64,000 nucleotides of DNA from a bacterium (lineage in GTDB: Bacteria > Patescibacteriota > Minisyncoccia > Phycocordibacterales > UBA2100): NCBI GenBank assembly GCA_016789445.1, contig JAEUQT010000001.1:195603-259602 (forward strand). Direction: 5' to 3'. The notes beneath the pieces are model-generated. The model had not been told where the DNA came from. It saw only the letters and a program-made list of their open reading frames with translations, and did no database searches. Made by a program: the position numbers and the translations under genes. Of the stretch, positions 5,585-21,329 are shown piece by piece. Positions within the stretch are counted from its first letter, which is position 1, and each line of letters begins with the position of its first letter.

Positions 5585-5960
5585 GAGGAATTATTTTATC
5601 ACGCGACAGGAGATACTTACCCACAGCATAGCCGGTGATACCGCCAAGGACGTCCATGAGAAGGTCGAGCGAGGTATCGAACGCGAAATTCGCTTCACGC
5701 GGGATGCCGCCCCAAAGCTCGAAGAGTTCCCAGCCGACACTGACCGCGATGATGATAAGGAGGACCCGCATGAATGTGAGCTTCCGATGCACCGATGAGA
5801 ACAGCCACATCGCCGCGAGAGCGACCCACATCGCACCGCCGAAATGCATGAAGACATCCAGCCACGGGAAGAGCCAGTAGAGATAGAGCTTGAGCGCAAT
5901 GATGTGTATCGCACCGATGAGTGCGATCAGGAATGCTTGTATGAAAAAGATATGACGCAT
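5571..5960 (-). CDS. VanZ-like family membrane protein
   Basis: Taking the MRHIFF start at 5960 (the ORF-track TTG start is 5975). Has 3-4 TM segments. Motif WELFELWGGIPREANFAFDTSLDLLMDVLGGITG matches the VanZ E..Q/R/D/N..G..G signature. Confidence 0.45.
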   Translation of the reverse strand: MRHIFFIQAFLIALIGAIHIIALKLYLYWLFPWLDVFMHFGGAMWVALAAMWLFSSVHRKLTFMRVLLIIIAVSVGWELFELWGGIPREANFAFDTSLDLLMDVLGGITGYAVGKYLLSRDKIIPHGTA

Positions 5961-6276
5961 GAAAATCCGGTACAAAGAAACTCCGCGCTGCGGAGTGTCT
6001 TTGAGGCGGCAGGTACGGCAATCCTGGCTTTATAGTCCAGGTGGGAGCCCGCAGAACCACAACCACGGTCATGGACGATATGAGGCTTCCCTATTTTGTA
6101 CCAGCAGGTTTTAGTACCAGCCGCTGGAGTCAGTATATCACTTTCAGTTTTCTGAAGAAGCTCGGGGAAAATCCTTCCGATACTAGGCGCGGGATGTACG
6201 CATTTGGAGTCGTACTGTGATACGGCGACAAATGCGTACGGGACCCGCAACGACGTAGCGGAGGATTTTAGCGAGC

Positions 6277-6912
6277 TTATTCAAGAATGCCGTCAAGATT
6301 AACGTCGTAGAGGATCGCCTCGCTTACCAAGCGGTAGTTGAGCAATTCTCCCTCCGTAAACCAGATCGCGATCTCGCGGTTCGCGTCTTCGACGTTCTCG
6401 GAGCAATGGATGAGGTTGCGGACTGCACGATCATCGACTGCGGAGATGCCGTACGAATCGAGCGTAAGGTCGCCGCGGATGGTACCGACGTCAGAGGTAG
6501 CAGGCTCGGTATCGCCGGTCACCTTGCGTGCCACGACTGCTGCCTGATTTCCTTCCCAGACCATCATGACGACGGGACCCGACGTCATGAACTTTACGAG
6601 CTGGCGGATGATGTCTTTGCCGTACTCGATCGGCTCCTTGTTGACCGGAAGACCGGCCGCCTTCTTGTCTTCGGTGATCTTGGTCCCCTTCTTGAGGAAC
6701 CACGCATCGTCCTTGTTGTAGTGCTCCCAGAGCTTCTTCTCGTCGGCGATACCGAACTTGATGCCCACGAGCTTGAGGCCGGTGCGTTCGTAGCGCTTGG
6801 TGATCTCGCCGATGAGCGAACGCTGGACGCCGTCCGGCTTGATAATGACGAATGTGCGCTCCTTTTTCGGATGTGCAGGCATATGAGTGTGGTTATGGCA
6901 GGCGTCTACCAA
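6277..6912 (-). CDS. ndk: nucleoside diphosphate kinase (with ~30-aa internal insertion)
   Basis: ERTFVIIKPDGVQRSLIGEI ... SGPVVMMVWEGNQAAVVARKVTG ... IRGDLTLDSYG ... NLIHCSEN. The true start may be MPAHP at 6882. Confidence 0.85.
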   Translation of the reverse strand: MVDACHNHTHMPAHPKKERTFVIIKPDGVQRSLIGEITKRYERTGLKLVGIKFGIADEKKLWEHYNKDDAWFLKKGTKITEDKKAAGLPVNKEPIEYGKDIIRQLVKFMTSGPVVMMVWEGNQAAVVARKVTGDTEPATSDVGTIRGDLTLDSYGISAVDDRAVRNLIHCSENVEDANREIAIWFTEGELLNYRLVSEAILYDVNLDGILE

Positions 6913-6948: not shown

Positions 6949-9723
6949 CTAATAGGTGGATGCGTCGGGAGACTGACCGAAGCGAGCACGTATCTCGGCT
7001 TCGATCCCCTCCCGGTCGCGACCGAACGTACGATACGAAAGTTCCTTGAGTGCGTCAACATGACCATGATTGAAGCGCGGAAGATCCGAGGTGCGGAGCG
7101 TAAACGGTCGCGCCGGCGTGCCGTTCACGAGAAGCGCCACCGATGCATGACGATTCTCCTGATTCTCAAGGTCATTGCGGGTGAAGACCGGATGGAACTG
7201 CTTCTCCAGGAATTCCGCGTCGGTGGTGCCGATGCGGAACGCGATCTTGGTCCCCACATTGCCGATGACCGCATCGCGGATCTCTTCAGGAAGCTGCGCG
7301 ATGAACTGGTGGGCGACGGTGAGCGAGAGCTTGTACTTACGCGCCTCGGAGAGGATGGTGGAAATGGATGGCGTCGCGAAGTTCTGGAATTCGTCGATAT
7401 AGAGATAGAAGGTCGGCAGCTCGCTACGGGTGTCTACGCGGGAGAATGCCGCCTGCAGGAACTTCGAGACCAGCACGAGTCCCAAGAGTGAGGCATTACG
7501 CTCCCCCAGACGGCCCTTTGATAAGTTCGCAAGGAAGATCTTCTTGTTGTCCATGATGTCGCGGAAATCGAATGCCGATTGCTGCTGCGCCACGATCGGG
7601 CGCATGATGTCGTTCGCGAGGAAGACATCGAATTTCGAGGTGATGTACGGCGCGATCTCCGGCAGCGCCGCATCACCCTGCGGACCTTCGGCGATCTTCT
7701 TCCAGAACTGGACGATAACCGGATTATTGCAGCGCGAAAGCTTGAGATCGCGGAATGACTTATCCGCGAACACACGCGGAATCTCCAGAAAGGTGGAACC
7801 GGTGTCCGGATCTTCGACGACGAGCTGCACTGCATTGCGGTAGTACTGCTCGAACATCGGACCGAACGCCTCAGGGACATCCGCATAGAGCTTGCGGAAG
7901 ATCTGGTACACCTCGTCGATGACGAACGTCTTCATCTCCGGTCGCGAGAGATCGTACTCGAGCATATTGAGTCCCATGGGGCGGTCGGAATGCGCCGGGT
8001 CGAAGTAGATCACATCCTCGATACGCTCGGGCGGGACCGCCGCAAGTACATCCTCGATGTCATTGCCATGCGGATCGATGAAGGCCACACCTTCCCCGTT
8101 GCGCATGTCCTGGATGATCATGTTCTTGATGAGACCGGTCTTACCGGTACCCGTCTGTCCGATGACGTAGCAGTGACGCAACCTATCCTGCGCACCGAAG
8201 CGGACTTCCCGCTCATCAGCACCGTAGCGGTTAAGACCAAGCTGGATACCATCCGCCGGCATCTCGACCGGTGCTGGCGCCTGTTTCGCGTGCGCTTTCT
8301 TCAATTCGCGCGACGTAGTGACACGCTCGGCAGTGAGATGGACCATCGTGGAAAGCTCCGCGAGATTGAGCGGAATGGCGGTCGAATGATCGAACGTGCG
8401 GTAGGTGAATTCGCGCAGGAAAGCTGTCATGCCCCAGCTACCGACATGCTTGAAGTGGATGCGGTTCCCCTTCGGATCATCGAACTGGTTGAACGGCGCA
8501 ATGAGGTTCTTCAAGAGCTGTTCCGCTCGCGCCTCATCCGGTGCTGAAGTGACGAGACGGATGACCGTCGGTACGATACGGCTCTTGATCTTGCGGCCGA
8601 TGGCCTCGGTCGCCACCTGATCCCCCTGACGACGCATCTGCTGCCCCTCCGCCTTCGCTTTCGCCTCCTTGGAGGAGAACAGTTCGTCGACGACGTCGTG
8701 CACGAAATCACCGAAGACGGTCTCAGCGGTCTTCAATGCTTTCTCCAGCGGCTTTCCGTGTTCGAGTGCGCGCAAGATCTTCTTGTAGTGGTTGTTGTAC
8801 CGCTCTCCTTCGTTCGAGACGACAATCTGGAGTCCCGCACCTTCTCCATGCTTGGCGAGCTTCGCGAACGCCGCGAGAAGCACATTCATCGGATCATGCT
8901 CGAAGGATTCGTAGGTCTTCAGGGGGTATGCCGGATGCTCATGGAGCGTCGCGTACGCTGCGGCATGGTGGCCGTCGTAATTGAAGAGGTTATAATCGCC
9001 ACGTAACTCGCTGATGCGGGCATTCGGGAAGACCGAGGAGATGAGGCGCTCCGCCAATGCCTGCTTCTCACGCGGTACGGCCACGAAAATCGATGCCTCC
9101 TCAGTACCCTCCGGGACTGCTATTTCAATAGAAAAACCCTCATCAGCGCCGATGAGCGAGAGAAATCCCGAGTAAAGTTGCTCAGATGACGCTAAGAACT
9201 GTTCAAGCTTGTGCTGGCTTTTATCTTCGCTTTCCCCGTGGGATTGCGGATGTATCTCGAAGAGGACGAGGTGGAGGGCGCGCGCGATCCTCTCCGGCGG
9301 CTTCATCCCTTTCTGCGGCAAGCCCTCGGCGATATAGCGCACCAACATACGATGGAGATCGTCTTCGATGTGGGGGTTCTTGAGACGGGCCGCGACAGAG
9401 AGCGCATTGCGGATACCGTGCTCGGCGACGACCTTGAGAAGCCCGTCCATCTGTGCATCATGTGCTTCCGGCTGGAGATCAAGCGCGATGCGGAGCGTCT
9501 CGTGTTCGGGAAGCACCGTCGCTTCGTGGAGGACCGCCTTCGCCGGAGCGACGCCGTATTCGGCCACTTCACGCTTCGCGATACGCTCTTTCTCGAACGC
9601 GTTTCCCTCTACTTCGAGCTCACGCTCTTTCTCGGCGACACGCTCGCGCAGGAATGCGAGCTCCTCTTCGGGAGATTTGAATGCCGTCGCAGGCCTGAAG
9701 CGCTCCCCTGTGCGCGGTTGCAT
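6949..9723 (-). CDS. large P-loop ATPase, VirD4/TraG/TraD (type IV coupling protein, DUF87-like) family
   Basis: 924 aa. Walker A GQTGTGKTGLIKNMI, Walker B FYLYIDEFQNF, and a downstream LSLTVAHQFIAQL motif typical of T4SS coupling-protein ATPases. The ~400-aa N-terminal region is unassigned. Confidence 0.55.
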   Translation of the reverse strand: MQPRTGERFRPATAFKSPEEELAFLRERVAEKERELEVEGNAFEKERIAKREVAEYGVAPAKAVLHEATVLPEHETLRIALDLQPEAHDAQMDGLLKVVAEHGIRNALSVAARLKNPHIEDDLHRMLVRYIAEGLPQKGMKPPERIARALHLVLFEIHPQSHGESEDKSQHKLEQFLASSEQLYSGFLSLIGADEGFSIEIAVPEGTEEASIFVAVPREKQALAERLISSVFPNARISELRGDYNLFNYDGHHAAAYATLHEHPAYPLKTYESFEHDPMNVLLAAFAKLAKHGEGAGLQIVVSNEGERYNNHYKKILRALEHGKPLEKALKTAETVFGDFVHDVVDELFSSKEAKAKAEGQQMRRQGDQVATEAIGRKIKSRIVPTVIRLVTSAPDEARAEQLLKNLIAPFNQFDDPKGNRIHFKHVGSWGMTAFLREFTYRTFDHSTAIPLNLAELSTMVHLTAERVTTSRELKKAHAKQAPAPVEMPADGIQLGLNRYGADEREVRFGAQDRLRHCYVIGQTGTGKTGLIKNMIIQDMRNGEGVAFIDPHGNDIEDVLAAVPPERIEDVIYFDPAHSDRPMGLNMLEYDLSRPEMKTFVIDEVYQIFRKLYADVPEAFGPMFEQYYRNAVQLVVEDPDTGSTFLEIPRVFADKSFRDLKLSRCNNPVIVQFWKKIAEGPQGDAALPEIAPYITSKFDVFLANDIMRPIVAQQQSAFDFRDIMDNKKIFLANLSKGRLGERNASLLGLVLVSKFLQAAFSRVDTRSELPTFYLYIDEFQNFATPSISTILSEARKYKLSLTVAHQFIAQLPEEIRDAVIGNVGTKIAFRIGTTDAEFLEKQFHPVFTRNDLENQENRHASVALLVNGTPARPFTLRTSDLPRFNHGHVDALKELSYRTFGRDREGIEAEIRARFGQSPDASTY

Positions 9724-9744: not shown

Positions 9745-10512
9745 CTACACCGCAGTGATGATCTCCGGCCCTTTTTTCGTGACGATAATCGTGTGTTCGG
9801 TATGTGCGGAGCGAGAACCATCTTTCGTGCGGTATGAAAAACCGTCCTCGTCGACGAAAAGCGACCCGGAACCGCGCGTGAACATCGGTTCTATGGCGAT
9901 GACGAGTCCTTCTTCGAGCGGGACATCGAAACGCGGGTCGCGGTAGTTCGGGACGTGCGGCTCCTCGTGAACCTTCTTGCCGACGCCGTGTCCGGAGAGG
10001 TTTTTCGGGAAGCCTAATCCATATTTTTTCGCGACGGTTTCTACTGCTTCACCGATGTCGCCCGTCGTATTGCCCACGCGTGCCTGCGCTATGCCTGCCG
10101 CGAGCGCCTCATACGCGGCCTTCACCATCTCTTCGTCCTTCGGATCGCCCGTTCCGGCGATGAGCGTGACCGCATGGTCCGTGAAATAGCCTTTGTGCTT
10201 CACACCGAAATCGAGTGTGACCACATCACCTTCTCCAAACGGCTTCGTGATGATACTGCCCGGCGCGTGGACGATGACGTCGTTCACCGAAATGCAGATG
10301 ACTGACGGGAACTTCTCACCGTTGCGACCAGAGCCGTAGCCCAGGAATGCCGCGGTATCGCCATCAGCCTTCAAAAGCTCACGCGCCCTAAGATCGATCT
10401 CTTTCGGAGAAACCCCGGGCTTCACCATCTTCGAGAGCTCTTTCAAGTGGGAACCGAGGCGTCGGCCGCTCTCGCGCAGCAATTCGTAGTCTTGTTTCGT
10501 CTTCGCGATCAT
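9745..10512 (-). CDS. map: type I methionine aminopeptidase
   Basis: 255 aa; VICISVNDVIVHAPGS ... DHAVTLIAG ... GHGVGKKVHEEPHVPNY ... IEPMFTRG is the canonical MetAP fold. Confidence 0.9.
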   Translation of the reverse strand: MIAKTKQDYELLRESGRRLGSHLKELSKMVKPGVSPKEIDLRARELLKADGDTAAFLGYGSGRNGEKFPSVICISVNDVIVHAPGSIITKPFGEGDVVTLDFGVKHKGYFTDHAVTLIAGTGDPKDEEMVKAAYEALAAGIAQARVGNTTGDIGEAVETVAKKYGLGFPKNLSGHGVGKKVHEEPHVPNYRDPRFDVPLEEGLVIAIEPMFTRGSGSLFVDEDGFSYRTKDGSRSAHTEHTIIVTKKGPEIITAV

Positions 10513-11129
10513 GAAAGTCCTAACTCACGGAGGATGTTGGCATGGATGGTCTCGACGTCTGGCTCGCCGTCGACGGAGATGACCTTGCGGCCGCGGGATT
10601 TCAGGAGTTCGAGCTGCGGAATGACATCGGAATGGTACCAGGCAAGACGCTTCTTGATAGCCTCTTCGGTGTCGTCGTTGCGGCCGCGTGCAAGGAGTCG
10701 CTGCATCACGGATGCTTCGGTGAGCTCGATCGAGACGATGGTGAAATCATCGCGACCGAAGAACTTCATCGCGTCGTCGAATGCGGCCGTCTGTTCTGGT
10801 CCGCGCGCGAGGCCATCCGCGATGATGTGCTCGTCTCCGGCGATGAGATTCTCCGCGATCTTCTTGGTCTGGAGATAGATAGCCATGAAATCCGGCATGC
10901 GGTTCCCTTGGTCGATGACGCTGCCGGTCAGTTTCCCTGTGTAGGAACCGGTGTCACGTAGTGCGCGCAGTTCCGCACCCATATCGATGTGGATGATGCC
11001 GCGCTCCGGCTGGGTCTTTGTGAGGTGCTCCATGAGCATCTTTACCTGCGTCCCCTTACCGGCCCCCTGGGAACCGAAAAAAAGGACCGATAACGGCCGC
11101 GGATTGGCAGGGTTGGGCGTGTCTGTCAT
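10509..11129 (-). CDS. adk: adenylate kinase
   Basis: Start taken at internal MTDTP... Motifs LFFGSQGAGKGTQVKML (P-loop), LID and NMP regions. Overlaps the gmk stop by 4 nt. Confidence 0.85.
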   Translation of the reverse strand: MTDTPNPANPRPLSVLFFGSQGAGKGTQVKMLMEHLTKTQPERGIIHIDMGAELRALRDTGSYTGKLTGSVIDQGNRMPDFMAIYLQTKKIAENLIAGDEHIIADGLARGPEQTAAFDDAMKFFGRDDFTIVSIELTEASVMQRLLARGRNDDTEEAIKKRLAWYHSDVIPQLELLKSRGRKVISVDGEPDVETIHANILRELGLS

Positions 11130-11716
11130 GCACCGAGAGTATACCCTTCTTTGCGCAGGATTTCTATCACCTCGTCGATCGCCTGATCGAGCTTCCCGTC
11201 CTCGTTCGTAATGCGGTAATCGTAGAATGGAGCCTCTTCTTTGATCTCCCGTTCGGTGAACTTCCGGCGCTCCTCCCACTCCACATCGCTCATCGGCGCT
11301 CGGGCGCGGATGCGCTTCTCGAATGCATCGAGCGACGGCGGCATGATGAAAAATGTCGTCGCATCGTAGTTTTCTTTCAAGTATTTCGCGCCAACAATTT
11401 GTATCTGGAAAAGCGTTACCTTCCCTGCTGAAACATTCTTATCGAGGCCGGGCTTGTAGAGGCCGTAGTAAGTATCAGTATCCGGTCGGTGGTAATGCTC
11501 GGGGATACTCCCGTCAGCGAGTCCGGCGAGGAATTCGTCCTTGGAGAGGAAGTAGTAGTTCTTCTCATGCTTTTCCCCAGGGCGCGGCGCGCGCGTCGTC
11601 GCGTTCACGGCGAAGACAGTGTTCGGACAACGTGCCAAGACCCCTTTGATGATGGAGTCCTTGCCGCTACCTGCGGGCCCCGCTATCACGACGGCGTTAC
11701 GTAACATGAACGGCAT
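11126..11716 (-). CDS. gmk: guanylate kinase
   Basis: VIAGPAGSGKDSI P-loop, RAPRPGEKHEKNYYFLSKDEF, TTRAPR motif. Start taken at MPFML. Confidence 0.8.
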   Translation of the reverse strand: MPFMLRNAVVIAGPAGSGKDSIIKGVLARCPNTVFAVNATTRAPRPGEKHEKNYYFLSKDEFLAGLADGSIPEHYHRPDTDTYYGLYKPGLDKNVSAGKVTLFQIQIVGAKYLKENYDATTFFIMPPSLDAFEKRIRARAPMSDVEWEERRKFTEREIKEEAPFYDYRITNEDGKLDQAIDEVIEILRKEGYTLGA

Positions 11717-11768
11717 CCTAGCATAAAAAAGAAAATCAGGAGCTCGCGACATAAGCGAGCTCCCGAAA

Positions 11769-12167
11769 TCATTTCGACTCGACTTTCCACCACTCTTCAA
11801 GAAAGTCGACTGTTAGAACATCTGGAAAGAGCAATCTTGTACCAATTAAGACCGCAGGCTCTGTCGTAGCATGTGTTCGCTCTGAGTCATCTACGACATG
11901 TGCACTTATACGTATCCACTGTCCTTTCCAGAATACTTCGCCATGCGATAGTTCTATTTCTCCGTTCCCGCTTGCGTAGGAGACAGGACGAAAAATTGTG
12001 GTTGGTTCGAAATTCAGTTCCCCGGCAAGTGTATCGCCAAGAAATAGATACCCGTCGAAAGCCGTGTCGATAATCGCTAACGCACGAACACCATTTCGCC
12101 ACTCCAGCATTGCCAAAGGGCGCTTTTTCGTATCGATGCGGCCTCTGATAAAGGAAGGGGTGGTCAT
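11769..12167 (-). CDS. retropepsin-like (clan AA) aspartic protease, copy A (active-site DTA variant)
   Basis: 132 aa from MTTPSF. ALAIIDTAFDGYLFLGDTLAGEL and VLIGTRLLFPDVLTVDF echo the retropepsin DTG and IIGRNLL motifs. Paralogous to 17640..18011. The ATG overlaps the upstream gene's stop as ATGA. Confidence 0.6.
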   Translation of the reverse strand: MTTPSFIRGRIDTKKRPLAMLEWRNGVRALAIIDTAFDGYLFLGDTLAGELNFEPTTIFRPVSYASGNGEIELSHGEVFWKGQWIRISAHVVDDSERTHATTEPAVLIGTRLLFPDVLTVDFLEEWWKVESK

Positions 12168-12412
12168 TTGCCACCCCCAATCTCGCGCATCCAACCTATA
12201 TCGCTCTGTCCGAATCGTCTTTGAAATTCAATCATCAGATCCTTCTCATTCTCACCGACCAAGTATTCACCATTGGTCGTGTTAATGACAACAAGCATCT
12301 CAGGTTTTAAGCCTTTCAATTTTTCCTGAATCTTACCGAAGATCTCTTCACCTTTGATTCGAGCTTGCTTTCGGATTTCACCGCGATTTTTCCACTTCTC
12401 TGCAGTAGACAT
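12164..12412 (-). CDS. small partner protein of retropepsin module, copy A
   Basis: 82 aa; EIRKQARIKGEEIFGKIQEKLKG ... LVVINTTNGEYLVGENE ... FQRRFGQSDIGWMREIG aligns with the 17401..17643 product. AGGAGG lies 5 nt upstream of the ATG. Confidence 0.55.
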   Translation of the reverse strand: MSTAEKWKNRGEIRKQARIKGEEIFGKIQEKLKGLKPEMLVVINTTNGEYLVGENEKDLMIEFQRRFGQSDIGWMREIGGGK

Positions 12413-12450
12413 GGTGCCTCCTGAAGTACATTACCTGTTAGGATTATGCC

Positions 12451-12486
12451 GCAAAAAAGAAAGGACTGCCATTGTTGGCAGTCCTT
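12451..12486 (-). terminator. intrinsic terminator after small secreted-protein gene
   Basis: Minus strand reads AGGACUGCC-AACAA-UGGCAGUCCU followed by UUCUUUUUUG. Confidence 0.6.
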
Positions 12487-12494
12487 ATGATCGG

Positions 12495-12728
12495 CTAGGT
12501 GCGGAATTCGCCGCGACAGACGACGGTGTACCTGGTCGTCGGAGACATTTTCCGCCAGATAGCGGCGGTCTGGTGCGCTTCGGTATACGGCATCCAGCCG
12601 ACACCCCCTTGCTCACCCGTCACCGAATCCTTGTAGAGGATCTGGCACTCTTGCTCCTTTGTGCCGCTCGCCATCAGCATGGCCACAAGAAGAATCGCTT
12701 TCACTTCTCTCTCCTTCTTCCCTAACAA
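12495..12728 (-). CDS. small secreted protein (hypothetical)
   Basis: 77-aa ORF with hydrophobic N-terminus KAILLVAMLMASG and two Cys. It lies between secY and the retropepsin module. Weak call. Confidence 0.35.
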   Translation of the reverse strand: MLGKKEREVKAILLVAMLMASGTKEQECQILYKDSVTGEQGGVGWMPYTEAHQTAAIWRKMSPTTRYTVVCRGEFRT

Positions 12729-12782
12729 AAAACCACTGAGATATATTATATCATCTCAGTGGCCTTTGTCAAACTACCTCTT

Positions 12783-14057
12783 CTAGTACTCGCGGATGGA
12801 TGTCTGTGCGTCGACTTTCTTCACGACGTCGAGGACGACGGAAACGGCGATGAGAAGCGCCGTACCACCGATCGTGAGCGCCGTGATACCGGTCAGACCC
12901 TGGAGGATGATCGGCATGACCGCGATGAGACCGAGGAAGAGGGCTCCCACGAGCGTGATGCGCGTGATGATGTTGCCGAGGTACTCAGCGGTCGTATTCC
13001 CTGGGCGGACGCCCGGGATGAATGCGCCGTTCTTCTGGAGGTTCTTCGCGATCTGGTTCGGCTCGAATGTGATAGCGGTGTAGAAGTACGTGAATACGAA
13101 GACGAGGACGAAGTACATCGTGCCGTAGAGCGCCTGGTTGTTGAGGCCGGCGAGGACGCTGTTCGCACCCGACGAGAGCCACGGGATCGAGGAGTTAGCG
13201 AGGAAGGTCGCGATCATCTGCGGGAACAAGAGGAACGAAAGCGCGAAGATGATCGGCATGACACCTGCCTGATTCACGCGAAGCGGGAGGTAGGTGGAAA
13301 CACCGCCCATGACCTTCGAACCGCGGACGCGACGTGCGTAGGTAACCGGAATCGGACGCTCTGCCTCAGAGATGTAGACGACGCCTGCCGTGATCGCCAC
13401 ACCGACTGCTGCCATCGCGATGTAGGTCGGAAGCTGTGCGATGTCGAAGCTGAAGATGAGCTGTGCGAGCGTCGACGGGATGATCGCCACGATACCTGCG
13501 AAGATGATGAGCGAGACGCCATTGCCGATGCCGAACTCGGTGATGAGCTCTCCGATCCACATGAGAAGGATCGAACCGGCTGCCACGATGAGCGTGTTGG
13601 TGATCGCGCTCTCAAGCGTCATCGGTGCGATGATCCCCTGCTGCTGGAGGATGAGGAGGAACGCGAAACCCTGGATGAGCGCGAGCGGGACCGTGAGGAA
13701 GCGCGAGTACTGCATGAAGCGAGCGCGACCGGCATCACCTTCTTCCTGATACATCTCCTTCAGCTTCGGCACGAGGACCGTGAGGAGCTGCATGACGATG
13801 GATGCCGTGATGTACGGACCCACGCCGAGCATGACGATGGAAAGATTGGAAAAGCCGCCGCCGGAGAAGATGTTGAGGAGGCCTAGAAATTGGTTGTTCG
13901 AGAGGAACTGCTGGAGCGCGAACGAGTCCACCGACGGGATCGGGATCGCCGCAAGCAAGCGGAAGACCGCAAGCGCGCCGAGCGCGAAGAGGATTCGGTT
14001 GCGGAGCGTCGTATCTTCTACGACGATCCTGAGCTTTCGCATGAATGCGTCGAACAT
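12783..14057 (-). CDS. secY: preprotein translocase subunit SecY
   Basis: 424 aa, 10 TM segments; MFDAFMRKLRIVVEDTTLRNRILFALGALAVFRL... Follows rplO as in the spc operon. Confidence 0.95.
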   Translation of the reverse strand: MFDAFMRKLRIVVEDTTLRNRILFALGALAVFRLLAAIPIPSVDSFALQQFLSNNQFLGLLNIFSGGGFSNLSIVMLGVGPYITASIVMQLLTVLVPKLKEMYQEEGDAGRARFMQYSRFLTVPLALIQGFAFLLILQQQGIIAPMTLESAITNTLIVAAGSILLMWIGELITEFGIGNGVSLIIFAGIVAIIPSTLAQLIFSFDIAQLPTYIAMAAVGVAITAGVVYISEAERPIPVTYARRVRGSKVMGGVSTYLPLRVNQAGVMPIIFALSFLLFPQMIATFLANSSIPWLSSGANSVLAGLNNQALYGTMYFVLVFVFTYFYTAITFEPNQIAKNLQKNGAFIPGVRPGNTTAEYLGNIITRITLVGALFLGLIAVMPIILQGLTGITALTIGGTALLIAVSVVLDVVKKVDAQTSIREY

Positions 14058-14072
14058 AGGATTTTGTTTAGG

Positions 14073-14522
14073 TTAGGAAATGCTGCCCCCTGCCTTCTCG
14101 ATGGCCGCCTTCGCACCTGCGGAAACGATGACACCAGAGAACTTGAACTTCTTCTTCGATTCAGAGCCGACGATCTTCACCTTTGGTGCGCCGGTCTTCC
14201 CTGCGCGGACGATACCGCTCTCGACAAGCGCCTTCGGAGTGACCTCCGAACCGTCGAAGCGTGCTTCGAGCGTCGCGAGTGAGACGGTAACAGGACGAGG
14301 CTTTGCCTCCCAGACGGTGCGACCACGATTCTTGCCGTACCCACGGCGCTTCGGGATCTTCTTGATGATGTCGCGGAGAGCCGGGCGGATCTTCGCACCT
14401 GCGCGCGCAGTCTGGCCCTTGCCGCCCTTCCCGGAGGTCTTGCCGCGGGTAGAAGACTGGCCACGACCGACACGGCGGTACGGACGCTTCGTCATTCGCT
14501 TGAGTGTGTGAAGGCCGGTCAT
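14073..14522 (-). CDS. rplO: 50S ribosomal protein L15
   Basis: Start at internal MTGLHTLKRMTKRPYRRVGRGQSS ... GKGGKGQ. Directly abuts the rpsE stop (14524) with no L30 gene between. Confidence 0.9.
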   Translation of the reverse strand: MTGLHTLKRMTKRPYRRVGRGQSSTRGKTSGKGGKGQTARAGAKIRPALRDIIKKIPKRRGYGKNRGRTVWEAKPRPVTVSLATLEARFDGSEVTPKALVESGIVRAGKTGAPKVKIVGSESKKKFKFSGVIVSAGAKAAIEKAGGSIS

Positions 14523-14523
14523 A

Positions 14524-15120
14524 TTAGTGTTTCTTTTCGATAGTCTTGAGCGCTTCGATAGCAGCGCGTGCGTTGTTGATGGAATTGTGGCTGCGGGAGA
14601 GGATCTTTGCGGTAACGTCGGTGACCCCTGCGAGCTCGAGGACCGCACGGACAGCGGAACCGGCGACGAGACCACGACCCGGAGATGGGCGGATCTCGAC
14701 GACGCTGGCTGCGTACTTCGCCTCGATGTTGTGCTTGATGGAGTTCGTCTTGGTGAGGTCCAGCGTGATCATGTTCTTCTTCGCGTGGCGGGTCGCCTTT
14801 TCGATCGCGAGCTGGGTGTCCATTGCCTTGCCGAGACCGACACCGACACGACCCTTCTTGTCGCCGATGACCATACAGACGGAGAAATTGAAGCGGCGAC
14901 CACCTGCCATGACGCGGGCGACGCGGCGGATGCCGAGCATCTTCTGAGCGAACTCGGAGCGCGGAGCGTCCCCTCGATCACGGCGCGGACCACGAGGGCC
15001 ACGGCCGCCGGGGCCACCACGACGATCCCCACCTGGGCGCGGACCACGGCCGCGGAAATCCTGGCGCGGAGCGTCTGCCGGAGTCTGCGTATCTGCCACC
15101 TGTGTCGTTTCGTTAGTCAT
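14524..15120 (-). CDS. rpsE: 30S ribosomal protein S5 (Arg/Gly/Pro-rich N-terminal extension)
   Basis: KMLGIRRVARVMAGGRRFNFSVCMVIGDKKGRVGVGLGKA ... canonical S5 core. The N-terminal RGRGPRPGGDRRGGPGG region is low-complexity. Confidence 0.9.
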   Translation of the reverse strand: MTNETTQVADTQTPADAPRQDFRGRGPRPGGDRRGGPGGRGPRGPRRDRGDAPRSEFAQKMLGIRRVARVMAGGRRFNFSVCMVIGDKKGRVGVGLGKAMDTQLAIEKATRHAKKNMITLDLTKTNSIKHNIEAKYAASVVEIRPSPGRGLVAGSAVRAVLELAGVTDVTAKILSRSHNSINNARAAIEALKTIEKKH

Positions 15121-15124
15121 AACA

Positions 15125-15472
15125 TTAGAAGTCGAGTCCTGCCTTACGCGCTGCATCAGCAAACGCCTTGATAGTGCCCTGATACTGGAAGCCGCCGCGA
15201 TCGAAGACGACCTTCTTCACGCCTGCCTTCTGTGCTGCTGCCGCGAGGGTCTCTGCTGCTGCTTCTGCCTTCTCGCGCGGGGTCTTGCCCTTTGCTTCGG
15301 AAGAAGAAACCGCCGCAAGCGTCTTTCCTGCGTTGTCGTCGATGATCTGTGCGACGACGCGCGTGTTCGACTTGAAGATCGAAAGGCGTGGGCGCTCTGC
15401 GCTGCCCATCACCTTCGCACGGACGCGTCGGTGACGTCGTTCTCGCTGCTGTGTTTTAGAAAGAGTCTGCAT
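15125..15472 (-). CDS. rplR: 50S ribosomal protein L18
   Basis: 115 aa; RERRHRRVRAKVMGSAERPRLSIFKSNTRVVAQIIDD ... VVFDRGGFQYQG. Confidence 0.9.
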   Translation of the reverse strand: MQTLSKTQQRERRHRRVRAKVMGSAERPRLSIFKSNTRVVAQIIDDNAGKTLAAVSSSEAKGKTPREKAEAAAETLAAAAQKAGVKKVVFDRGGFQYQGTIKAFADAARKAGLDF

Positions 15473-15477
15473 ATGCG

Positions 15478-16020
15478 TTATGAGGATGCTGCGGCCTTCT
15501 TACCCTGCTTCTGGCGTACGACTTCGCCTTCGTAACGGATGCCCTTGCCCTTGTATGGCTCCGGCTTCTTGATCTCGCGGACCGATGCAGCGAACTGACC
15601 GACCGCATCCTTGTCTGCGCCCGAGATGGTGATGATGTTCTTCTCGACGACTGCCGTGAGACCTTCCGGAACCGCGACGATGACCGGATGCGAGAAACCG
15701 AGTGCCATCTTGAGGTTCTTGCCCTGAAGCTCAGCCTTGAAACCGATACCTTCGATCTGGAGCTTCTTCTGGAACGGCGTGTTGACGCCGGCGATCATGT
15801 TGCGGACGTGCGCAGCGTAGGTACCCCAGAGCGCCTTTGCGAGACGGGTGTTGTTTGCCGGTTCGACAGAAGCGTTGCCGTTTTCGACGGTAACCTTCAC
15901 TGCCGGGTGCATCGGACGCACGAGCGTGCCGCCCTTCCCCTTTACCGTGATGCTCTCAGAAGAGACCGACATGTCGGTACCTGCTGGGATTGCGATTGCG
16001 AGTTTTCCGATTCGTGACAT
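15478..16020 (-). CDS. rplF: 50S ribosomal protein L6
   Basis: 180 aa; MSRIGKLAIAIPAGTDMSVS ... GFKAELQGKNLKMALGFSHPV. Confidence 0.95.
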   Translation of the reverse strand: MSRIGKLAIAIPAGTDMSVSSESITVKGKGGTLVRPMHPAVKVTVENGNASVEPANNTRLAKALWGTYAAHVRNMIAGVNTPFQKKLQIEGIGFKAELQGKNLKMALGFSHPVIVAVPEGLTAVVEKNIITISGADKDAVGQFAASVREIKKPEPYKGKGIRYEGEVVRQKQGKKAAASS

Positions 16021-16026
16021 ATAGAT

Positions 16027-16422
16027 TTACCAGATTTCGAAGAGGGCTTCACCGCCGACCTTCTCCTTGCGTGCTTCAAGACCGGTCTTGATACCCTTCG
16101 GCGTCGAGAGGATGAGGTGACCGTGACCGTAGCGGACAGGGACGATTTCGCTCACCGAGCGGTAGAGGCGGCGGCCCGGCTTCGAGACGCGCTTCGCACC
16201 GTTGATGACCGGCTTGCCTGCTGCGTCGTACTTAAGCGTGATGTCGAGGGTCTTCTTGACCTTCTTACCTTTCTTCTCGATACCACCGACGAGGCCGATG
16301 GCCTTGAGCTTCTCGACGATCGCGAGCTTGTACATGGAAAACGGGACAGACACGGTGGTCTGCTTCACAGCGCCGGCATTCTGCAGGCGGTTGATGAGAT
16401 CTCCGACAGGGTCAGTAATCAT
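16027..16422 (-). CDS. rpsH: 30S ribosomal protein S8
   Basis: 131 aa; MITDPVGDLINRLQNA ... HGHLILSTPKGI. Confidence 0.95.
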   Translation of the reverse strand: MITDPVGDLINRLQNAGAVKQTTVSVPFSMYKLAIVEKLKAIGLVGGIEKKGKKVKKTLDITLKYDAAGKPVINGAKRVSKPGRRLYRSVSEIVPVRYGHGHLILSTPKGIKTGLEARKEKVGGEALFEIW

Positions 16423-16428
16423 ACGGAA

Positions 16429-16614
16429 TTACCAAGAGGACTTCTTAACGCCCGGGATGTTGCCCTCAAGCGCCTCCTCGCGGAAGCAGATGCGGCAGAG
16501 GTTGAAATCGCGCATGAAGCCACGCGGACGGCCGCACTTGAAGCAGCGGCGTACGGTACGCGAAGAGAACTTCGGCGTACGGTTAGCTTTCACGATCATC
16601 GATTTCTTGGCCAT
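16429..16614 (-). CDS. rpsZ: 30S ribosomal protein S14, type Z (Zn-ribbon)
   Basis: 61 aa; [46 protein letters not shown], with a C-x2-C ... C-x2-C pattern. Confidence 0.9.
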
Positions 16615-16800
16615 AGATAAAAGATTGGTTGTAAGCCTGAGGAGTGTTTCGAGGCCTGCACCCGGGCTTCCGCCGTGGGTTATGGACTCCCGATTCGTGG
16701 CCTAGATTCTGGCAGTTTCCTCAGGTTCCCCCTCGGACTTACTCAAACTCAGGCCCCCTACGAGGCCCGTGCATACTACCCCCTGAGGGGGCCTAAGTCA

Positions 16801-16834
16801 AATAAAAGAAAAAGCCGCGTTAAGGCACGCGGCG
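16801..16834 (-). terminator. intrinsic terminator after secreted-protein gene 16854..17246
   Basis: Minus strand reads GCCGCGU-GCCUUA-ACGCGGC followed by UUUUUCUUUUAUUUG. Confidence 0.55.
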
Positions 16835-16853
16835 AGCCAGTGTAGGGTGCGAA

Positions 16854-17246
16854 TTAGCACCAGTCGCGGTAGTGGGCCGAGATGAGGGTCCGTACGAGGG
16901 TCGGACTCTTGAACTCCCAGATCTGGACGACAAGAGCGTCGTTGTCCTGGTCGTGCTTCACCTCGGTGGAGATCTTCCGCGCGGTGCCGCCGGAAGCCAT
17001 GAAGCACGATTGGTCGTGCCGACGGCCATTGACGTAATTGACCGACTCGCGCGGACTGAAGCCCTCGGTCGCTTGATAGTACGCGACCGCGATCGCCGCT
17101 TCCATGCTGTTGCAGACAGGGCCGGAGATCGCGAACGAATCCGAACCATCGTTCGCCGCACGCATGGTGAAGCCGCAGACGCTCTGCGCGAACGCGCTCG
17201 TCGAAAGACACGCCGCGAGAGCCGCGCCCAACAGAAGACTTTTCAT
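16854..17246 (-). CDS. secreted Cys-containing hypothetical protein
   Basis: Signal peptide MKSLLLGAALAACLSTSAFAQ and six Cys. Co-inserted with retropepsin module B between rplE and rpsZ. Confidence 0.5.
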   Translation of the reverse strand: MKSLLLGAALAACLSTSAFAQSVCGFTMRAANDGSDSFAISGPVCNSMEAAIAVAYYQATEGFSPRESVNYVNGRRHDQSCFMASGGTARKISTEVKHDQDNDALVVQIWEFKSPTLVRTLISAHYRDWC

Positions 17247-17400
17247 CGAACATCCTCCAAAGAACAATCCCCTCGGGATCGAGAGGTGCGGTCAGTATAA
17301 GCGGGACTGAGCGACGCACTATTCCCTCGTGTGAATATGCATTGCCCAATCGATTGCGTGCGCGTATGGTGTATAGAGACTGGTCATTAAGGAGGTTCAC

Positions 17401-17643
17401 ATGAGCCAGAAAGGTGAAGAGATCCGGCAAAAGGGCGAGCGTATCTATCGACGCCTCAAGCCGAAGCTGGAACCGAAGCTCAACGGCAAGGTCATCATCA
17501 TCGACGTCACTACAGGCTTATACGTTCTGGGAGATGATATCTATGAGGCCGGCCCTGCGTTCAAGCACCTCTTCGGCAACAAGACTAAAGGATATGGGCG
17601 GAAAATCGGCCCCGATCCTTATACGCAACGGGTCGGCGCATGA
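17401..17643 (+). CDS. small partner protein of retropepsin module, copy B
   Basis: 80 aa; EIRQKGERIYRRLKPKLEPKLNGKVIIIDVTTGLYVLGDDIYE ... FGNKTKGYGRKIG. AAGGAGG lies 7 nt upstream of the ATG. Paralog of 12164..12412. Confidence 0.6.
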   Translation: MSQKGEEIRQKGERIYRRLKPKLEPKLNGKVIIIDVTTGLYVLGDDIYEAGPAFKHLFGNKTKGYGRKIGPDPYTQRVGA

Positions 17644-18011
17644 GACATGCATTCGATCCGATATTCTCGCGGCCGCTTATCATCATCGAATGCAATAAGC
17701 GGCCGCTTCGCTGCATCTTGGATACGGGCTACGCTGGCACTTTGTGGATGGGAAAGAGTATCGCCGACCGGTATGGGATTCTGACTGAAGAACCTGTTTA
17801 CTTCGCAAAAACCGCAAGCGGCGCCGACGCTGAATTCCAGCAAGGATATGCTCGCATCTTGATCGATCCCGTACTATTCGAAAACCTGCCGATCGATGTG
17901 TTTGAAGGCGCTCACGTAGAATACGCCCTGCTCGGCACGCGAGTATTACATAACTTCCGCGTAATCCTTGATTTCAAAGATGCCTTCACTGATCTGCAGT
18001 ATATCGATTAG
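17640..18011 (+). CDS. retropepsin-like (clan AA) aspartic protease, copy B (canonical DTG)
   Basis: 123 aa; LRCILDTGYAGTLWMG (D-T-G-A/Y) and ALLGTRVLHNFRVILDF (retropepsin IIGR-like). The ATG overlaps the upstream stop (ATGA). Confidence 0.65.
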   Translation: MRHAFDPIFSRPLIIIECNKRPLRCILDTGYAGTLWMGKSIADRYGILTEEPVYFAKTASGADAEFQQGYARILIDPVLFENLPIDVFEGAHVEYALLGTRVLHNFRVILDFKDAFTDLQYID

Positions 18012-18020
18012 AAAAATCAA

Positions 18021-18053
18021 AAGACCACTCTCGCGAGTGGTCTTTTCTTTCTT
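18021..18053. terminator. bidirectional terminator between retropepsin B and rplE
   Basis: AAGACCACUC-UCGC-GAGUGGUCUU flanked by an A-run upstream and UUUCUUUCUU downstream. The two genes are convergent. Confidence 0.7.
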
Positions 18054-18594
18054 ACGCTTTGAGCGGGAGGCCGATGTGTCGGAGGAAGGCTTCTGCTTCC
18101 TTCTTGGTCTTCGCGGTCGTCGTGATGGTGACTGCGAGGCCGAAGAGATCTTTCGCTTCTTCGTCTGCCGTTTCCGGGAAGACGGTGTGCTCCTTGAGGC
18201 CGATGGTGATGTTCCCCATCTCGTCGATAGCCTTCGCGTTGAGGCCGCGGAAGTCACGGACGCGCGGAAAGACGATGTTGTTGAGCTTATCGAGGAAGGA
18301 GTACATGCGAGCACCACGGAGCGTAACCATGTAGCCAGCGAGATCGCCGCGGCGGGTCTTGAAGGTCGCGATGGACTTGGTCGTCGAACGAGGAGCCGGC
18401 TGCTGACCGACGATCTTGGTGAGGCGATCGAGGATGAGCTCGCGCTTCTTCTTGTCGTGGACGGAGCCGACGCCGGTGGAGACGACGACCTTCTGGATGC
18501 GTGGAGCCTGCATCGCGCTGGTGTAGGAGAAATCTCCCTTCATCGCGGCGAATGCGCCCTGTGCCTTTTCCTTAACGGTGTGAGTTGTTGCCAT
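18052..18594 (-). CDS. rplE: 50S ribosomal protein L5
   Basis: 180 aa; QKVVVSTGVGSVHDKKKRELILDRL ... GYMVTLRGARMYSFLDKL ... GNITIGLKEH. Confidence 0.95.
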   Translation of the reverse strand: MATTHTVKEKAQGAFAAMKGDFSYTSAMQAPRIQKVVVSTGVGSVHDKKKRELILDRLTKIVGQQPAPRSTTKSIATFKTRRGDLAGYMVTLRGARMYSFLDKLNNIVFPRVRDFRGLNAKAIDEMGNITIGLKEHTVFPETADEEAKDLFGLAVTITTTAKTKKEAEAFLRHIGLPLKA

Positions 18595-18598
18595 AAAA

Positions 18599-18907
18599 TT
18601 AGAGGTTCGAACCGCTCTTTACTGCGACGCGCTGGCGCGAGCCATCCTTGCCGCGGGTGATCTTGATGCGGGACGGCTTGCCATCCTTCGGATCCATGAC
18701 AGCGACGTTGGAAATGTGGATCGGCATCACCTTGTCGATGATCTGACCCTTACCGCTCGTGCGAGTAGCCTTGCGGTGCTTCTTCACCATGTTGACGCCG
18801 TCGATGACGACCGCGTCGTGCTTAGGAAGGACGCGCACGACCGTGCCCGTGTTTCCCTTGTTCTTTCCGGCGATGACGATCACCTTGTCTCCTTTCTTGA
18901 TCTTCAT
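18599..18907 (-). CDS. rplX: 50S ribosomal protein L24
   Basis: Start at internal MKIKKGDKVIVIAGKNKGNTGTVVRVLPK (KOW motif). The upstream part of the ORF is a Ser/Arg-rich out-of-gene extension. Confidence 0.9.
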   Translation of the reverse strand: MKIKKGDKVIVIAGKNKGNTGTVVRVLPKHDAVVIDGVNMVKKHRKATRTSGKGQIIDKVMPIHISNVAVMDPKDGKPSRIKITRGKDGSRQRVAVKSGSNL

Positions 18908-18911
18908 ATAG

Positions 18912-19292
18912 TTAGACGATTTCCGGTGCCAAGGTACCGATGCGCTGATAGCCACGCTCGACGACTTCGCGCGGGATCGGACCGAACACACGGGATGCCT
19001 TCGGCTCCTTCGGGTCCTTACCGGAACCGGTGATGAGGACGACGGCGTTGTCATCGAAGCGGATGTAGCTGCCATCCTTGCGGCGCATAGCCTTGGTCTG
19101 GCGGACGACGACTGCCTTGTGCACTTCCTTCTTCTTCACGGCCTTGCGCGGCTGTGCGGTCTGGATGGAGATGACGACCTGGTCGCCGACCTGTGCGTAG
19201 CGCTTCTTGGAACCGCCGAGCACCTTGAAGATGCGTCCGATTTGTCCTCCGGAGTTGTCTGCGATCTTTACGAGTGTGCGGTCCTGAATCAT
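18912..19292 (-). CDS. rplN: 50S ribosomal protein L14
   Basis: MIQDRTLVKIADNSGGQIGRIFKVLGGSKKRYAQVGDQVV ... canonical L14. Confidence 0.95.
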   Translation of the reverse strand: MIQDRTLVKIADNSGGQIGRIFKVLGGSKKRYAQVGDQVVISIQTAQPRKAVKKKEVHKAVVVRQTKAMRRKDGSYIRFDDNAVVLITGSGKDPKEPKASRVFGPIPREVVERGYQRIGTLAPEIV

Positions 19293-19299
19293 ATAGGTA

Positions 19300-19542
19300 T
19301 TACTTCACGATCTCGAAGTGCTTGCGCTTGGACATCGGCTTGATCTCGCGGATAGCGACCTTGGTGCCGACCGCAACCTCATTGCCTGCGTCGTGGACGA
19401 GGAACTTCTTGGTCTTGAGCATGAACTTCTGGTACTTCGGATGCTTCTCGTAGCGGGAAACAGCCACCGTTGCGGTGTCCTTCATAGCCGACTTCACGAC
19501 GACGCCGTGGAGGATCTTTCCGTTGTTGGTTTTGGTTTCCAT
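19300..19542 (-). CDS. rpsQ: 30S ribosomal protein S17
   Basis: 80 aa; GKILHGVVVKSAMKDTATVAVSRYEKHPKYQKFMLKTKKFLVHD. Confidence 0.95.
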   Translation of the reverse strand: METKTNNGKILHGVVVKSAMKDTATVAVSRYEKHPKYQKFMLKTKKFLVHDAGNEVAVGTKVAIREIKPMSKRKHFEIVK

Positions 19543-19561
19543 ATCTTAAAGTCGGCGCATC

Positions 19562-19765
19562 TTAGCCGTTTTTCTTCGAATTAGCAATCGTGCGGGCTTT
19601 GAGTTCGGTGAGCATGCGGGCGATCTCGTGGCGGAGGTTGCGGCCCTCGCGGACATTGCGGGTGCGGGAACCTGCGCCGCCGAAGCGGAACACACGAAGC
19701 GCCTCGCGCTTCTCCGCGATCTCCTTCTGCAAATCTTCTGCTGATTTCTTAGTGATGTCTGCCAT
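19562..19765 (-). CDS. rpmC: 50S ribosomal protein L29
   Basis: 67 aa; DLQKEIAEKREALRVFRF. Sits between rplP and rpsQ. Confidence 0.9.
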   Translation of the reverse strand: MADITKKSAEDLQKEIAEKREALRVFRFGGAGSRTRNVREGRNLRHEIARMLTELKARTIANSKKNG

Positions 19766-19772
19766 ATGCGTA

Positions 19773-20195
19773 TTACTGACGTGCGATGACGCGGGTCTTC
19801 AACGGGAGCTTGGTGCCTGCCTTGCGGAGTGCTTCGCGAGCCATCGCCTCAGGTGCGCCGTCGACTTCGAAGATGACGCGGCCCGGACGGACGTCGAAGA
19901 CGTAGCCCTGCACATCACCCTTCCCCGAACCCATGCCGACTTCTGCAGCCTTCTGAGTAAAAGGACGGTCGGGGAAGACGCGGATCCAGATCTTCGCGGT
20001 CTTGCCTGCAGCGCGCGAGAGCGCGCGGCGAGCAGCTTCGATCTGGTTCGACGTGACGCGAGCCTGACTCGTCGCCTTGATGCCGAATGAACCGAATGCC
20101 ACGGTGATACCGCGGGTCTCAGGCTTTACGAGTCGCGCGTTGCGGCGGCGACCGGTCTGCCACTTACGATGCTTGGTTTTCTTAGGAGTCAACAT
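19773..20195 (-). CDS. rplP: 50S ribosomal protein L16
   Basis: MLTPKKTKHRKWQTGRRR ... RQAIEAARRALSRA-like core. Confidence 0.95.
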   Translation of the reverse strand: MLTPKKTKHRKWQTGRRRNARLVKPETRGITVAFGSFGIKATSQARVTSNQIEAARRALSRAAGKTAKIWIRVFPDRPFTQKAAEVGMGSGKGDVQGYVFDVRPGRVIFEVDGAPEAMAREALRKAGTKLPLKTRVIARQ

Positions 20196-20205
20196 ACGGT
20201 TTCAA

Positions 20206-20883
20206 TTATGCGCGTGCGCCTTTCTTGTCGTCGAAGATATCGCCGCGGTAGATCCAGACCTTGATACCGATGACACCATACGGGAGATATGCATTCTCAC
20301 GGCAGAAGTCGATGTCGGCGCGGATGGTCTGAAGCGGGACGCGGCCACGCTTGATCTCTTCCTGGCGGGACATCTCAGCGCCGCCGAGGCGGCCGGAGAG
20401 CGCGATGCGCACACCCTGGACGTCACGGTTTGCCATGACCTTCTCGACGGTCTGCTTGAGGACGCGACGGAACGTCTGGCGCTTTTCGAGGCCTTCCGCG
20501 ATCATGTACGCGACGACCGGAGCCTGCGATTCAGGAGAGCGGACTTCTTCGATGTCGAGTTTGACCGGAAGCTTCGGTGCACCCTTCACGGACTGTGCGA
20601 CCTTGGTGATCTCCTTAGTGAGCGTCTGGGAGCCTTCGCCGCCGCGACCGATGACCATACCCGGGCGGGAGGTCTTGATGAGGATGCGGATAGCCTGACG
20701 GGTGCGCTCGATCTCGACCGAAGTGACATACATGCCGCGGAGGCGCTTCTTGAGGAAGCTGCGGATGCGCGTGTCGATCATCACGTTCTGGCGGTACTGG
20801 AGCGGCGTTGCAGCGAACCAGCGCGACTTCCAGTCGCGGATGACGCCGAGGCGATGTGCGTATGGATGTACTGTGTGTGTCAT
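20206..20883 (-). CDS. rpsC: 30S ribosomal protein S3
   Basis: 225 aa; KH domain VTSVEIERTRQAIRILIKTSRPGMVIGRGG; C-terminal GVIGIKVWIYRG. Confidence 0.95.
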   Translation of the reverse strand: MTHTVHPYAHRLGVIRDWKSRWFAATPLQYRQNVMIDTRIRSFLKKRLRGMYVTSVEIERTRQAIRILIKTSRPGMVIGRGGEGSQTLTKEITKVAQSVKGAPKLPVKLDIEEVRSPESQAPVVAYMIAEGLEKRQTFRRVLKQTVEKVMANRDVQGVRIALSGRLGGAEMSRQEEIKRGRVPLQTIRADIDFCRENAYLPYGVIGIKVWIYRGDIFDDKKGARA

Positions 20884-20888
20884 ATAAA

Positions 20889-21329
20889 TTATTCGGCCTT
20901 GGCCTTCTTCTTAGCGGCTTTCTTAGCAGCCGGCTTCTTTTCAACAGCTTCGGCAACCGGAGCTTCAGCCTTTGTCTCCTTCTTTGCAGCCTTCTTCGAA
21001 ACTGCACCTGCAGCGCCGAGCTCGATCTTTACGATCGACATGACGCGGAGGATGCGGCCTGCGCGGCCACGAGCCTTCGGCATGAAGCGCTTGAGGACTG
21101 CTCCCTTGTCGACGGAGATCGACTTCACGACGAGGTCTTCCGGGTTCATCCCCTGCTGACGCGCATTCGCGATAGCAGACGCGAGAAGCTTCTCGAGTTC
21201 AGGAGCAGATTTCTTGGGCGTGAACGCGAGAAGATCGCGCGCGATGAGGACGCGCTTGCCACGGATCATGTCTGCGACGAGGCGGACCTTACGCGGAGAC
21301 TGCTTGAAGTTGGTAAGAAGTGCTTTCAT
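20889..21329 (-). CDS. rplV: 50S ribosomal protein L22 with Lys/Ala-rich C-terminal extension
   Basis: KQSPRKVRLVADMIRGKRVLIARDLLAFTPKKSAPELEKLLASAIANA ... plus a KKAAKKETKAEAP ... AKKKAKAE tail. Confidence 0.9.
   Translation of the reverse strand: MKALLTNFKQSPRKVRLVADMIRGKRVLIARDLLAFTPKKSAPELEKLLASAIANARQQGMNPEDLVVKSISVDKGAVLKRFMPKARGRAGRILRVMSIVKIELGAAGAVSKKAAKKETKAEAPVAEAVEKKPAAKKAAKKKAKAE

Follow-up and report, generated by a model that had tools for sequence, protein, structure and literature searches.

A small protein and a retropepsin-like aspartic protease form a conserved two-gene module in candidate phyla radiation bacteria, Chloroflexota and Cyanobacteria

Introduction

Prokaryotic single-domain clan AA peptidases (pSNCAPs; COG5550/COG3577), stand-alone proteins of the retropepsin type, have been catalogued since the 2000s essentially without an assigned function, and little is known of them (Llorens et al. 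2009, PMC2642776). RimB, a retropepsin-like bacterial protease, is reported to regulate ribosome modification (PMC11957791), the Rlo proteins of Pseudomonas are secreted retropepsin-like enzymes (PMC12239564), and a survey of archaeal CRISPR (clustered regularly interspaced short palindromic repeats) loci found retropepsin proteins of ~100 aa adjoining type III-D systems (PMC3973734). Here we analyze a 64,000-nucleotide stretch of a bacterium of the Minisyncoccia (assembly GCA_016789445.1, contig JAEUQT010000001.1, positions 195,603 to 259,602; hereafter the window) in which a gene for a protein of about 80 residues is followed, in two copies, by a gene for a single-domain retropepsin-like aspartic protease.

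The pair is a real, conserved and widespread two-gene module that is apparently undescribed. The original prediction, a reading of the sequence alone, did not recognize its architecture as a described system, and we found no description of it in the full-text literature (subscription-only papers being outside reach) or in PADLOC, PHROGs, Pfam or NCBIfam. Of the roles that were then proposed, a toxin–antitoxin-like, defence or selfish element fits the distribution of the module best. We accordingly favor, with a probability of roughly 45%, a reading in which both copies are autonomous cassettes of two genes, horizontally mobile and of the toxin–antitoxin or abortive-defence kind, and in which the protease is bound and held in check by the small protein.

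Results

Two paralogous modules in the ribosomal gene cluster

The list of open reading frames (ORFs) and the sequence agree with the original prediction on the four genes and their overlaps. Module A lies on the minus strand, with the upstream partner small A (12164..12412, 82 aa) followed by protease A (11769..12167, 132 aa, counted from the ATG in the overlap); module B lies on the plus strand, with small B (17401..17643, 80 aa) followed by protease B (17640..18011, 123 aa). At both junctions the ATG of the protease overlaps the stop codon of the small gene as ATGA. Module A is flanked by secY, gmk, adk and map, and module B by rpsZ and rplE, the B pair running on the strand opposite to the ribosomal operon. 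The two small proteins share 31% identity over 62 residues (BLASTP E 2e-9) and the two proteases 25% identity (E 1e-4), so the proposed paralogy is significant for both genes. A search of all six frames with the family hidden Markov model returned these two copies only in the 64-kb window.

Each small gene is preceded by the strong Shine-Dalgarno (SD) site that had been read there: AGGAGG for small A (12417..12422, minus strand, 4 nt 5′ of the ATG) and AAGGAGG for small B (17389..17395, plus strand, 5 nt 5′ of the ATG). The contrast drawn with the surrounding housekeeping genes also stands, as an SD core longer than 4 nt occurs in none of the 17 ribosomal or housekeeping genes checked (window 9745-21329); two nearby signal-peptide ORFs have SD sites as well. 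The SD-less housekeeping genes in this region mostly start only a few bases from the stop codon of the gene before them.

Each module also has its own terminators. Module A ends in a terminator-like hairpin with a T-run (11736..11766, minus strand) just upstream of gmk. A further terminator-like hairpin (12461..12486, minus strand), 3′ of a 77-aa ORF, separates that ORF from the module, which indicates that module A is its own transcription unit. Downstream of module B, a bidirectional terminator-like hairpin (18019..18046) is common to protease B on the plus strand and rplE on the minus strand. No tRNA or Rfam element was found near the modules.

In copy A, a GC-rich hairpin (12156..12178, minus strand) encloses the ATGA stop/start in its loop and is a possible coupling element. 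Its 8-bp stem (GGGGGTGG...CCACCCC) is identical in the window and in two related genomes (L007 728-750; L008 1203-1225), with variation confined to the loop. The hairpin could enforce translational coupling, but its stem overlaps coding sequence and carries no compensatory changes. The B-type junctions have no conserved hairpin.

The base composition of the modules is foreign. GC content at third codon positions (GC3) for the small gene and the protease, respectively, is 0.46 and 0.44 in module A, the lowest values, and 0.65 and 0.57 in module B, compared with 0.63-0.84 in the flanking housekeeping genes.

The downstream gene encodes a single-domain retropepsin-like protease

Profile searches gave a divided answer on the assignment of both downstream genes to the retropepsins. 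Protease B passes PF13975 (30.5 bits against a cutoff of 28.2), nearly passes PF13650 and is named 'retropepsin-like domain-containing protein' at NCBI (P0167). Protease A stays below every profile cutoff (TIGR03698, 19.5 against 57.35), and its membership in the family therefore rests on its fold and on its paralogy with B. In a structure model, protease A has the retropepsin fold, a single lobe of the pepsin fold. A profile of the protease family searched against the PDB matched the retropepsin domain of Ddi1 best (E 1e-7), followed by ApRick (6e-6) and human immunodeficiency virus (HIV) protease (about 1e-3).

The retropepsin motifs reported from the sequence are present, with one correction of attribution: CILDTGYAGT and ALLGTRVLHNF come from copy B, and VLIGTRLLFPDV comes from copy A. 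The hydrophobic-hydrophobic-Gly motif near the C-terminus is LIGT in A and LLGT in B, and occurs as LLGM, LIGT, LIGM, MIGT and similar forms in the family. The catalytic triad reads DTG in copy B and, as had been noted, DTA in copy A; the orthologues of protease A in L007 and L008 have DTG. The Asp and Thr of the triad are invariant among 92 family proteases.

A group of Dehalococcoidia loci (L065, L067, L073, L076, L078, L079, L086 and L090) has the pair flanked by extra stand-alone retropepsin-like genes. These genes (2611-2964 and 4698-5075 in L065) are of a different subtype (LVDTGAT...) and have no recognizable small partner. The same loci also carry a DUF4268 gene beside the pair, and by sequence they look like small islands of retropepsin genes.

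The upstream gene defines a small-protein family

Small A has three close homologues. A family profile built from the two small proteins and 18 close homologues was searched against 1.84 billion representatives (E≤1e-3) and defined a family of 363 representative clusters. Its members are mostly 75-100 residues long, and most are single-domain. Many members nevertheless contain the domain two or three times in tandem, joined by linkers of 15-40 residues, and the linkers and C-terminal tails repeat a subfamily-specific motif after a conserved I/V-G, an aromatic residue often following some five positions further on. Such tandem-domain proteins would be suited to binding a dimeric enzyme. No fusion of the small domain to a protease, which would have favored a direct interaction, was found among the 150 best representatives.

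Small B is predicted to fold into a long N-terminal helix followed by beta-beta-alpha-beta. The model has no relative among PDB structures. The conserved tail of small B, GPDPYTQRVGA, is predicted to be flexible and is modelled with low confidence; tails of the A type have only 3 residues. Neither small protein has a match in Pfam, NCBIfam, PADLOC or PHROGs. Five of 72 family members match DUF5678 (PF18929), a family of similarly small proteins without known function, weakly (best E 4.3e-4), but the two small proteins of the window do not match it even at E 1. Kinship to DUF5678 would thus be distant at most.

The pair is conserved across phyla and diverges as a unit

The genome survey covered one genome per species and used one subfamily motif, a narrower alignment that biases it to one Chloroflexota-rich subfamily. 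It yielded 274 confirmed stretches, and the counts given here come from the best 79 loci, all from Dehalococcoidia/Chloroflexota. A retropepsin-like ORF follows immediately downstream on the same strand in 74 of the 79, the remaining five being orphan small genes. The stop-to-start distance lies between -20 and +30 nt in 73 pairs, mostly as overlaps of 8, 4 or 1 nt. A genome may hold up to four loci, with 3-4 in several Dehalococcoidia genomes, and several Chloroflexota loci are tandem arrays of modules. The 150 genes flanking the Chloroflexota modules form a heterogeneous housekeeping and metabolic set without a recurrent third partner; they include enolase-superfamily enzymes, acyl-CoA dehydrogenases, holA, ABC transporters, tmk, secDF and queA/tgt.

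The pairing extends to other groups, as the original prediction had asked of a real module. In all four contigs examined for distant metagenomic members, a DTGF-type retropepsin ORF lies directly downstream of the small gene. Cyanobacterial plasmids gave 14 records, and five of the eight loci examined have the retropepsin directly downstream. One such pair sits between pglZ and pglX of a bacteriophage exclusion (BREX-1) locus, the pair on pCC7120alpha (a hypothetical protein, WP_010999914.1, and a clan AA aspartic protease, WP_010999913.1) adjoins ParDE and NucA/NuiA, another adjoins an integrase, and one is on a Tolypothrix plasmid. Orphan small genes on cyanobacterial plasmids lie beside transposases, TnpB, AbiEi and an integrase. 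The CPR-type protease B was not found on plasmids.

Pairwise distances among the small proteins and among their proteases are strongly correlated (r 0.88 over 92 pairs; Mantel test, 0 of 2000 permutations reaching r), which indicates that the two genes travel and diverge as a unit.

The modules have moved and decayed within the CPR lineage

The relatives of the window modules belong to the Minisyncoccia, which is a class within the candidate phyla radiation (CPR). A database protein identical to small B (P0001) is annotated in an NCBI genome. At 81-85% identity, close relatives of the B pair are likewise found at the rpsZ|rplE junction and on the opposite strand; more distant ones (57-66% identity) lie between murB and uvrA. 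L007 also has its A pair between secY and gmk. Decay is visible in L008, where a frame-disrupted third A-type small gene directly follows the protease (1582-1852) as a decayed tandem duplicate, and in the B-pair relative L100, whose protease is truncated.

The original prediction had attached meaning to the position inside the ribosomal super-operon. Since the site of the B pair varies among relatives and no ribosomal linkage is seen elsewhere, the Chloroflexota flanks being unrelated, this position is an incidental, lineage-specific landing site. We rejected a ribosome-linked function on the same grounds, as the position varies among relatives and phyla. The window copies would be old paralogues, each inserted at its own junction in the ribosomal cluster and then kept in the lineage.

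Neighboring ORFs and other local features

Two ORFs with a signal-peptide-like N-terminus, several cysteines, an SD site and their own terminator lie next to the modules on the minus strand, one of 77 aa (12495-12728, GC3 0.74) and one of 137 aa (16854-17267, GC3 0.79). Each copy of the module had been proposed to be co-inserted with such a secreted, Cys-containing gene. The GC3 of both ORFs is host-like, unlike that of the modules (0.44-0.65). The neighbor between rpsZ and the B pair varies in close relatives, where it is a 60-aa ORF, two ORFs of 91 and 166 aa, or none; co-insertion is therefore unsupported for B, and the 137-aa ORF is no part of module B. For A the signs are mixed. The 77-aa ORF is kept beside module A in L007 and L008 and so travels with it in three related genomes, but it has a host-like composition, its own terminator and a promoter-like site of its own, a perfect match to TTGACA-16-TATAAT (12772-12745). 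Neither ORF could be assigned to a family, a weak HPE1-like match (E 0.043) being the only hit.

Between rpsZ and the 137-aa ORF, ~240 nt (16615-16853) hold no called gene and no Rfam match; on the minus strand they include a promoter-like site (16801-16773) as well as a terminator-like hairpin (16814-16833). Directly downstream of map, a gene for a 924-aa protein (6949-9723, minus strand) has a DUF8128 match and a weak match to TraG-D_C, a type IV coupling-protein-like domain; its position is conserved in L007. In the relative L099, a gene for a 285-aa protein without a Pfam match (5668-6525) is inserted between rplX and rplN, which shows that this CPR lineage tolerates insertions at several points of its ribosomal cluster.

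Discussion

The toxin–antitoxin-like or defence reading draws on the gene order, the coupling, the co-divergence of the partners and a multi-copy, patchy distribution, together with the plasmid and defence-locus settings, the foreign composition, the orphan upstream genes and the decaying copies. The SD site and terminators that each module has of its own also favor it, as do the small retropepsin proteins reported beside archaeal type III CRISPR loci (PMC3973734). Toxicity, inhibition, physical binding and the trigger of the cassette are what we infer from this pattern. The small protein would be made first and, through translational coupling, in a fixed ratio to the protease, which would be the effector. 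The retropepsin fold acts as a homodimer, and the protease is expected to do the same. Binding of the small protein would keep the enzyme inactive or restricted, possibly with the semi-conserved C-terminal tail of the small protein in the substrate cleft, and loss or titration of the small protein would free the protease to cleave proteins of the cell or of an invader.

Several observations speak against this reading. The small protein has no recognizable DNA-binding domain (helix-turn-helix, ribbon-helix-helix, AbrB or Phd) and no match to any toxin–antitoxin or defence model. No convincing direct or inverted repeats around the modules mark insertion boundaries, transposases are rare among the Chloroflexota neighbors (3 of 150), and phage records held no copy of the protease. 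The small proteins of the window are basic (pI 9.3-9.8) and the proteases acidic (about 5.1), but this opposite-charge pattern, a typical trait of many toxin–antitoxin pairs, is not consistent across the family and was dropped as evidence for that reason. Both pairs are stable at the same sites in relatives with 69-85% small-protein identity, a retention that also fits a useful host function. At the third triad position, 11 of the 92 family proteases carry Ala and one carries Glu, and these are scattered over CPR and Chloroflexota lineages. By sequence, DTA is a recurrent variant and no lesion unique to copy A; either alanine is tolerated or catalysis may be dispensable in some copies.

The main rival, which we consider unlikely, takes the small protein as a dedicated substrate or precursor of the protease: a mini-polyprotein or pro-protein whose tail or linkers are trimmed and whose product carries the function, much as retroviral proteases process Gag. 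It would account for the many members with two or three tandem domains and for the motif that recurs in linkers and tails, as well as for a small B tail that is conserved and yet modelled with low confidence, and the tight coupling and the co-divergence suit an enzyme–substrate pair equally well. Most members, however, have one domain, the A-type tail is minimal, and no fusion links the two proteins among the 150 best representatives. Orphan small genes persist without a protease, the DTA and DTE variants would leave a substrate unprocessed, and the folded domain has no known function for which processing would be needed.

It is quite unlikely that the pair serves the host in regulated proteolysis, with the small protein as an adaptor or specificity factor and possibly ribosomal or secretion proteins as targets, an arrangement comparable in spirit to RimB in RimABK or to Ddi1 with its accessory domains. 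The ribosomal/secY cluster contains both pairs, and relatives have kept them there, Ddi1 is the best PDB match of the protease profile, and a retropepsin-like bacterial protease has been reported to regulate ribosome modification (PMC11957791). Against this stand the orientation of the B pair opposite to the operon, the terminators that each module has of its own, the murB/uvrA site in relatives, the lack of ribosomal linkage in other phyla and of rimK- or rimA-like genes nearby, and the multiple, plasmid-borne and decayed copies, which are atypical of a housekeeping regulator. Very unlikely is a last reading, in which the modules are two old insertions drifting to loss without current function here, copy A being catalytically dead: the DTA and the lowest GC3 of copy A, an exact record of protease A (P0172) that is sourced from Logan assemblies only and not from NCBI, and truncated copies in relatives would suit it, but none of the four ORFs is disrupted, their SD sites, ATGA coupling and terminators are in place, the small proteins share 62-85% amino-acid identity with intact orthologues in relatives, and several lineages have DTA in proteases that are otherwise intact.

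If the toxin–antitoxin-like reading is right, it gives a function to the long-orphaned single-domain retropepsins of prokaryotes. If it acts as an inhibitor, the small protein would be a naturally occurring protein that inhibits the retroviral-protease fold and would bring a new effector chemistry to toxin–antitoxin and defence biology. That a reduced-genome CPR bacterium keeps two copies in its most conserved operon suggests addiction or a real benefit. A near-obligate, co-evolving partner and a selfish or defence-like distribution offer a concrete and cheap experimental handle on these enzymes.

The pair does not fit a Gag-Pro unit of a retroelement. Overlaps and gaps between the two genes vary and no conserved frameshift geometry is seen, and a programmed frameshift fusion of the small gene and the protease was rejected as the spacing is not conserved. 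The window module ends at a terminator, and the top 25 neighbor families of the Chloroflexota modules include no reverse transcriptase or integrase.

Among described retropepsin-like enzymes, RimB of RimABK and the Rlo enzymes belong to different families and contexts; no ATP-grasp/rimK or rimA-like gene lies beside the pair in the window or in the murB/uvrA relatives. APRc (ApRick) of Rickettsia conorii is membrane-anchored, with an N-terminal extension and without a small upstream partner. The window proteases are, by contrast, bare soluble domains, and identity to APRc (PDB 5c9b) is only 17%. They resemble the pSNCAPs (COG5550/TIGR03698 'clan_AA_DTGF', PF13975/PF13650): both are stand-alone domains of ~120 residues, DTG(F) and hydrophobic-hydrophobic-Gly motifs are common to the two, and relatives are annotated 'clan AA aspartic protease'. 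They differ in that neither window protease reaches the TIGR03698 cutoff and copy A has DTA, and an obligate upstream partner goes unmentioned in the pSNCAP literature that we found (PMC2642776).

As a system, the pair resembles the type II toxin–antitoxin modules. Like them, it consists of two small genes that run in the same direction and overlap, the presumed neutralizer coming first. It also occurs in multiple copies at variable sites and is spread patchily across phyla, including plasmids and defence loci, and it shows orphan upstream genes, decayed copies and co-diverging partners. It differs in that neither protein has a known toxin–antitoxin domain and the small protein has no DNA-binding fold. 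PADLOC returned nothing meaningful for the module proteins (protease model E 0.043) and PHROGs nothing. The module belongs to no catalogued toxin–antitoxin family. To our knowledge no aspartic-protease toxin has been described, and we found none in the searchable literature. We regard it as a tentative and somewhat doubtful claim that this is the first system of toxin–antitoxin or abortive-infection type with an aspartic (retropepsin-like) protease as effector and a small-protein family as its cognate inhibitor, widespread in CPR, Chloroflexota and Cyanobacteria and with possible distant archaeal relatives of the DUF5678/AF_0612 type. The protease family is known; what is apparently new is the small partner and the pairing of the two at the level of a system.

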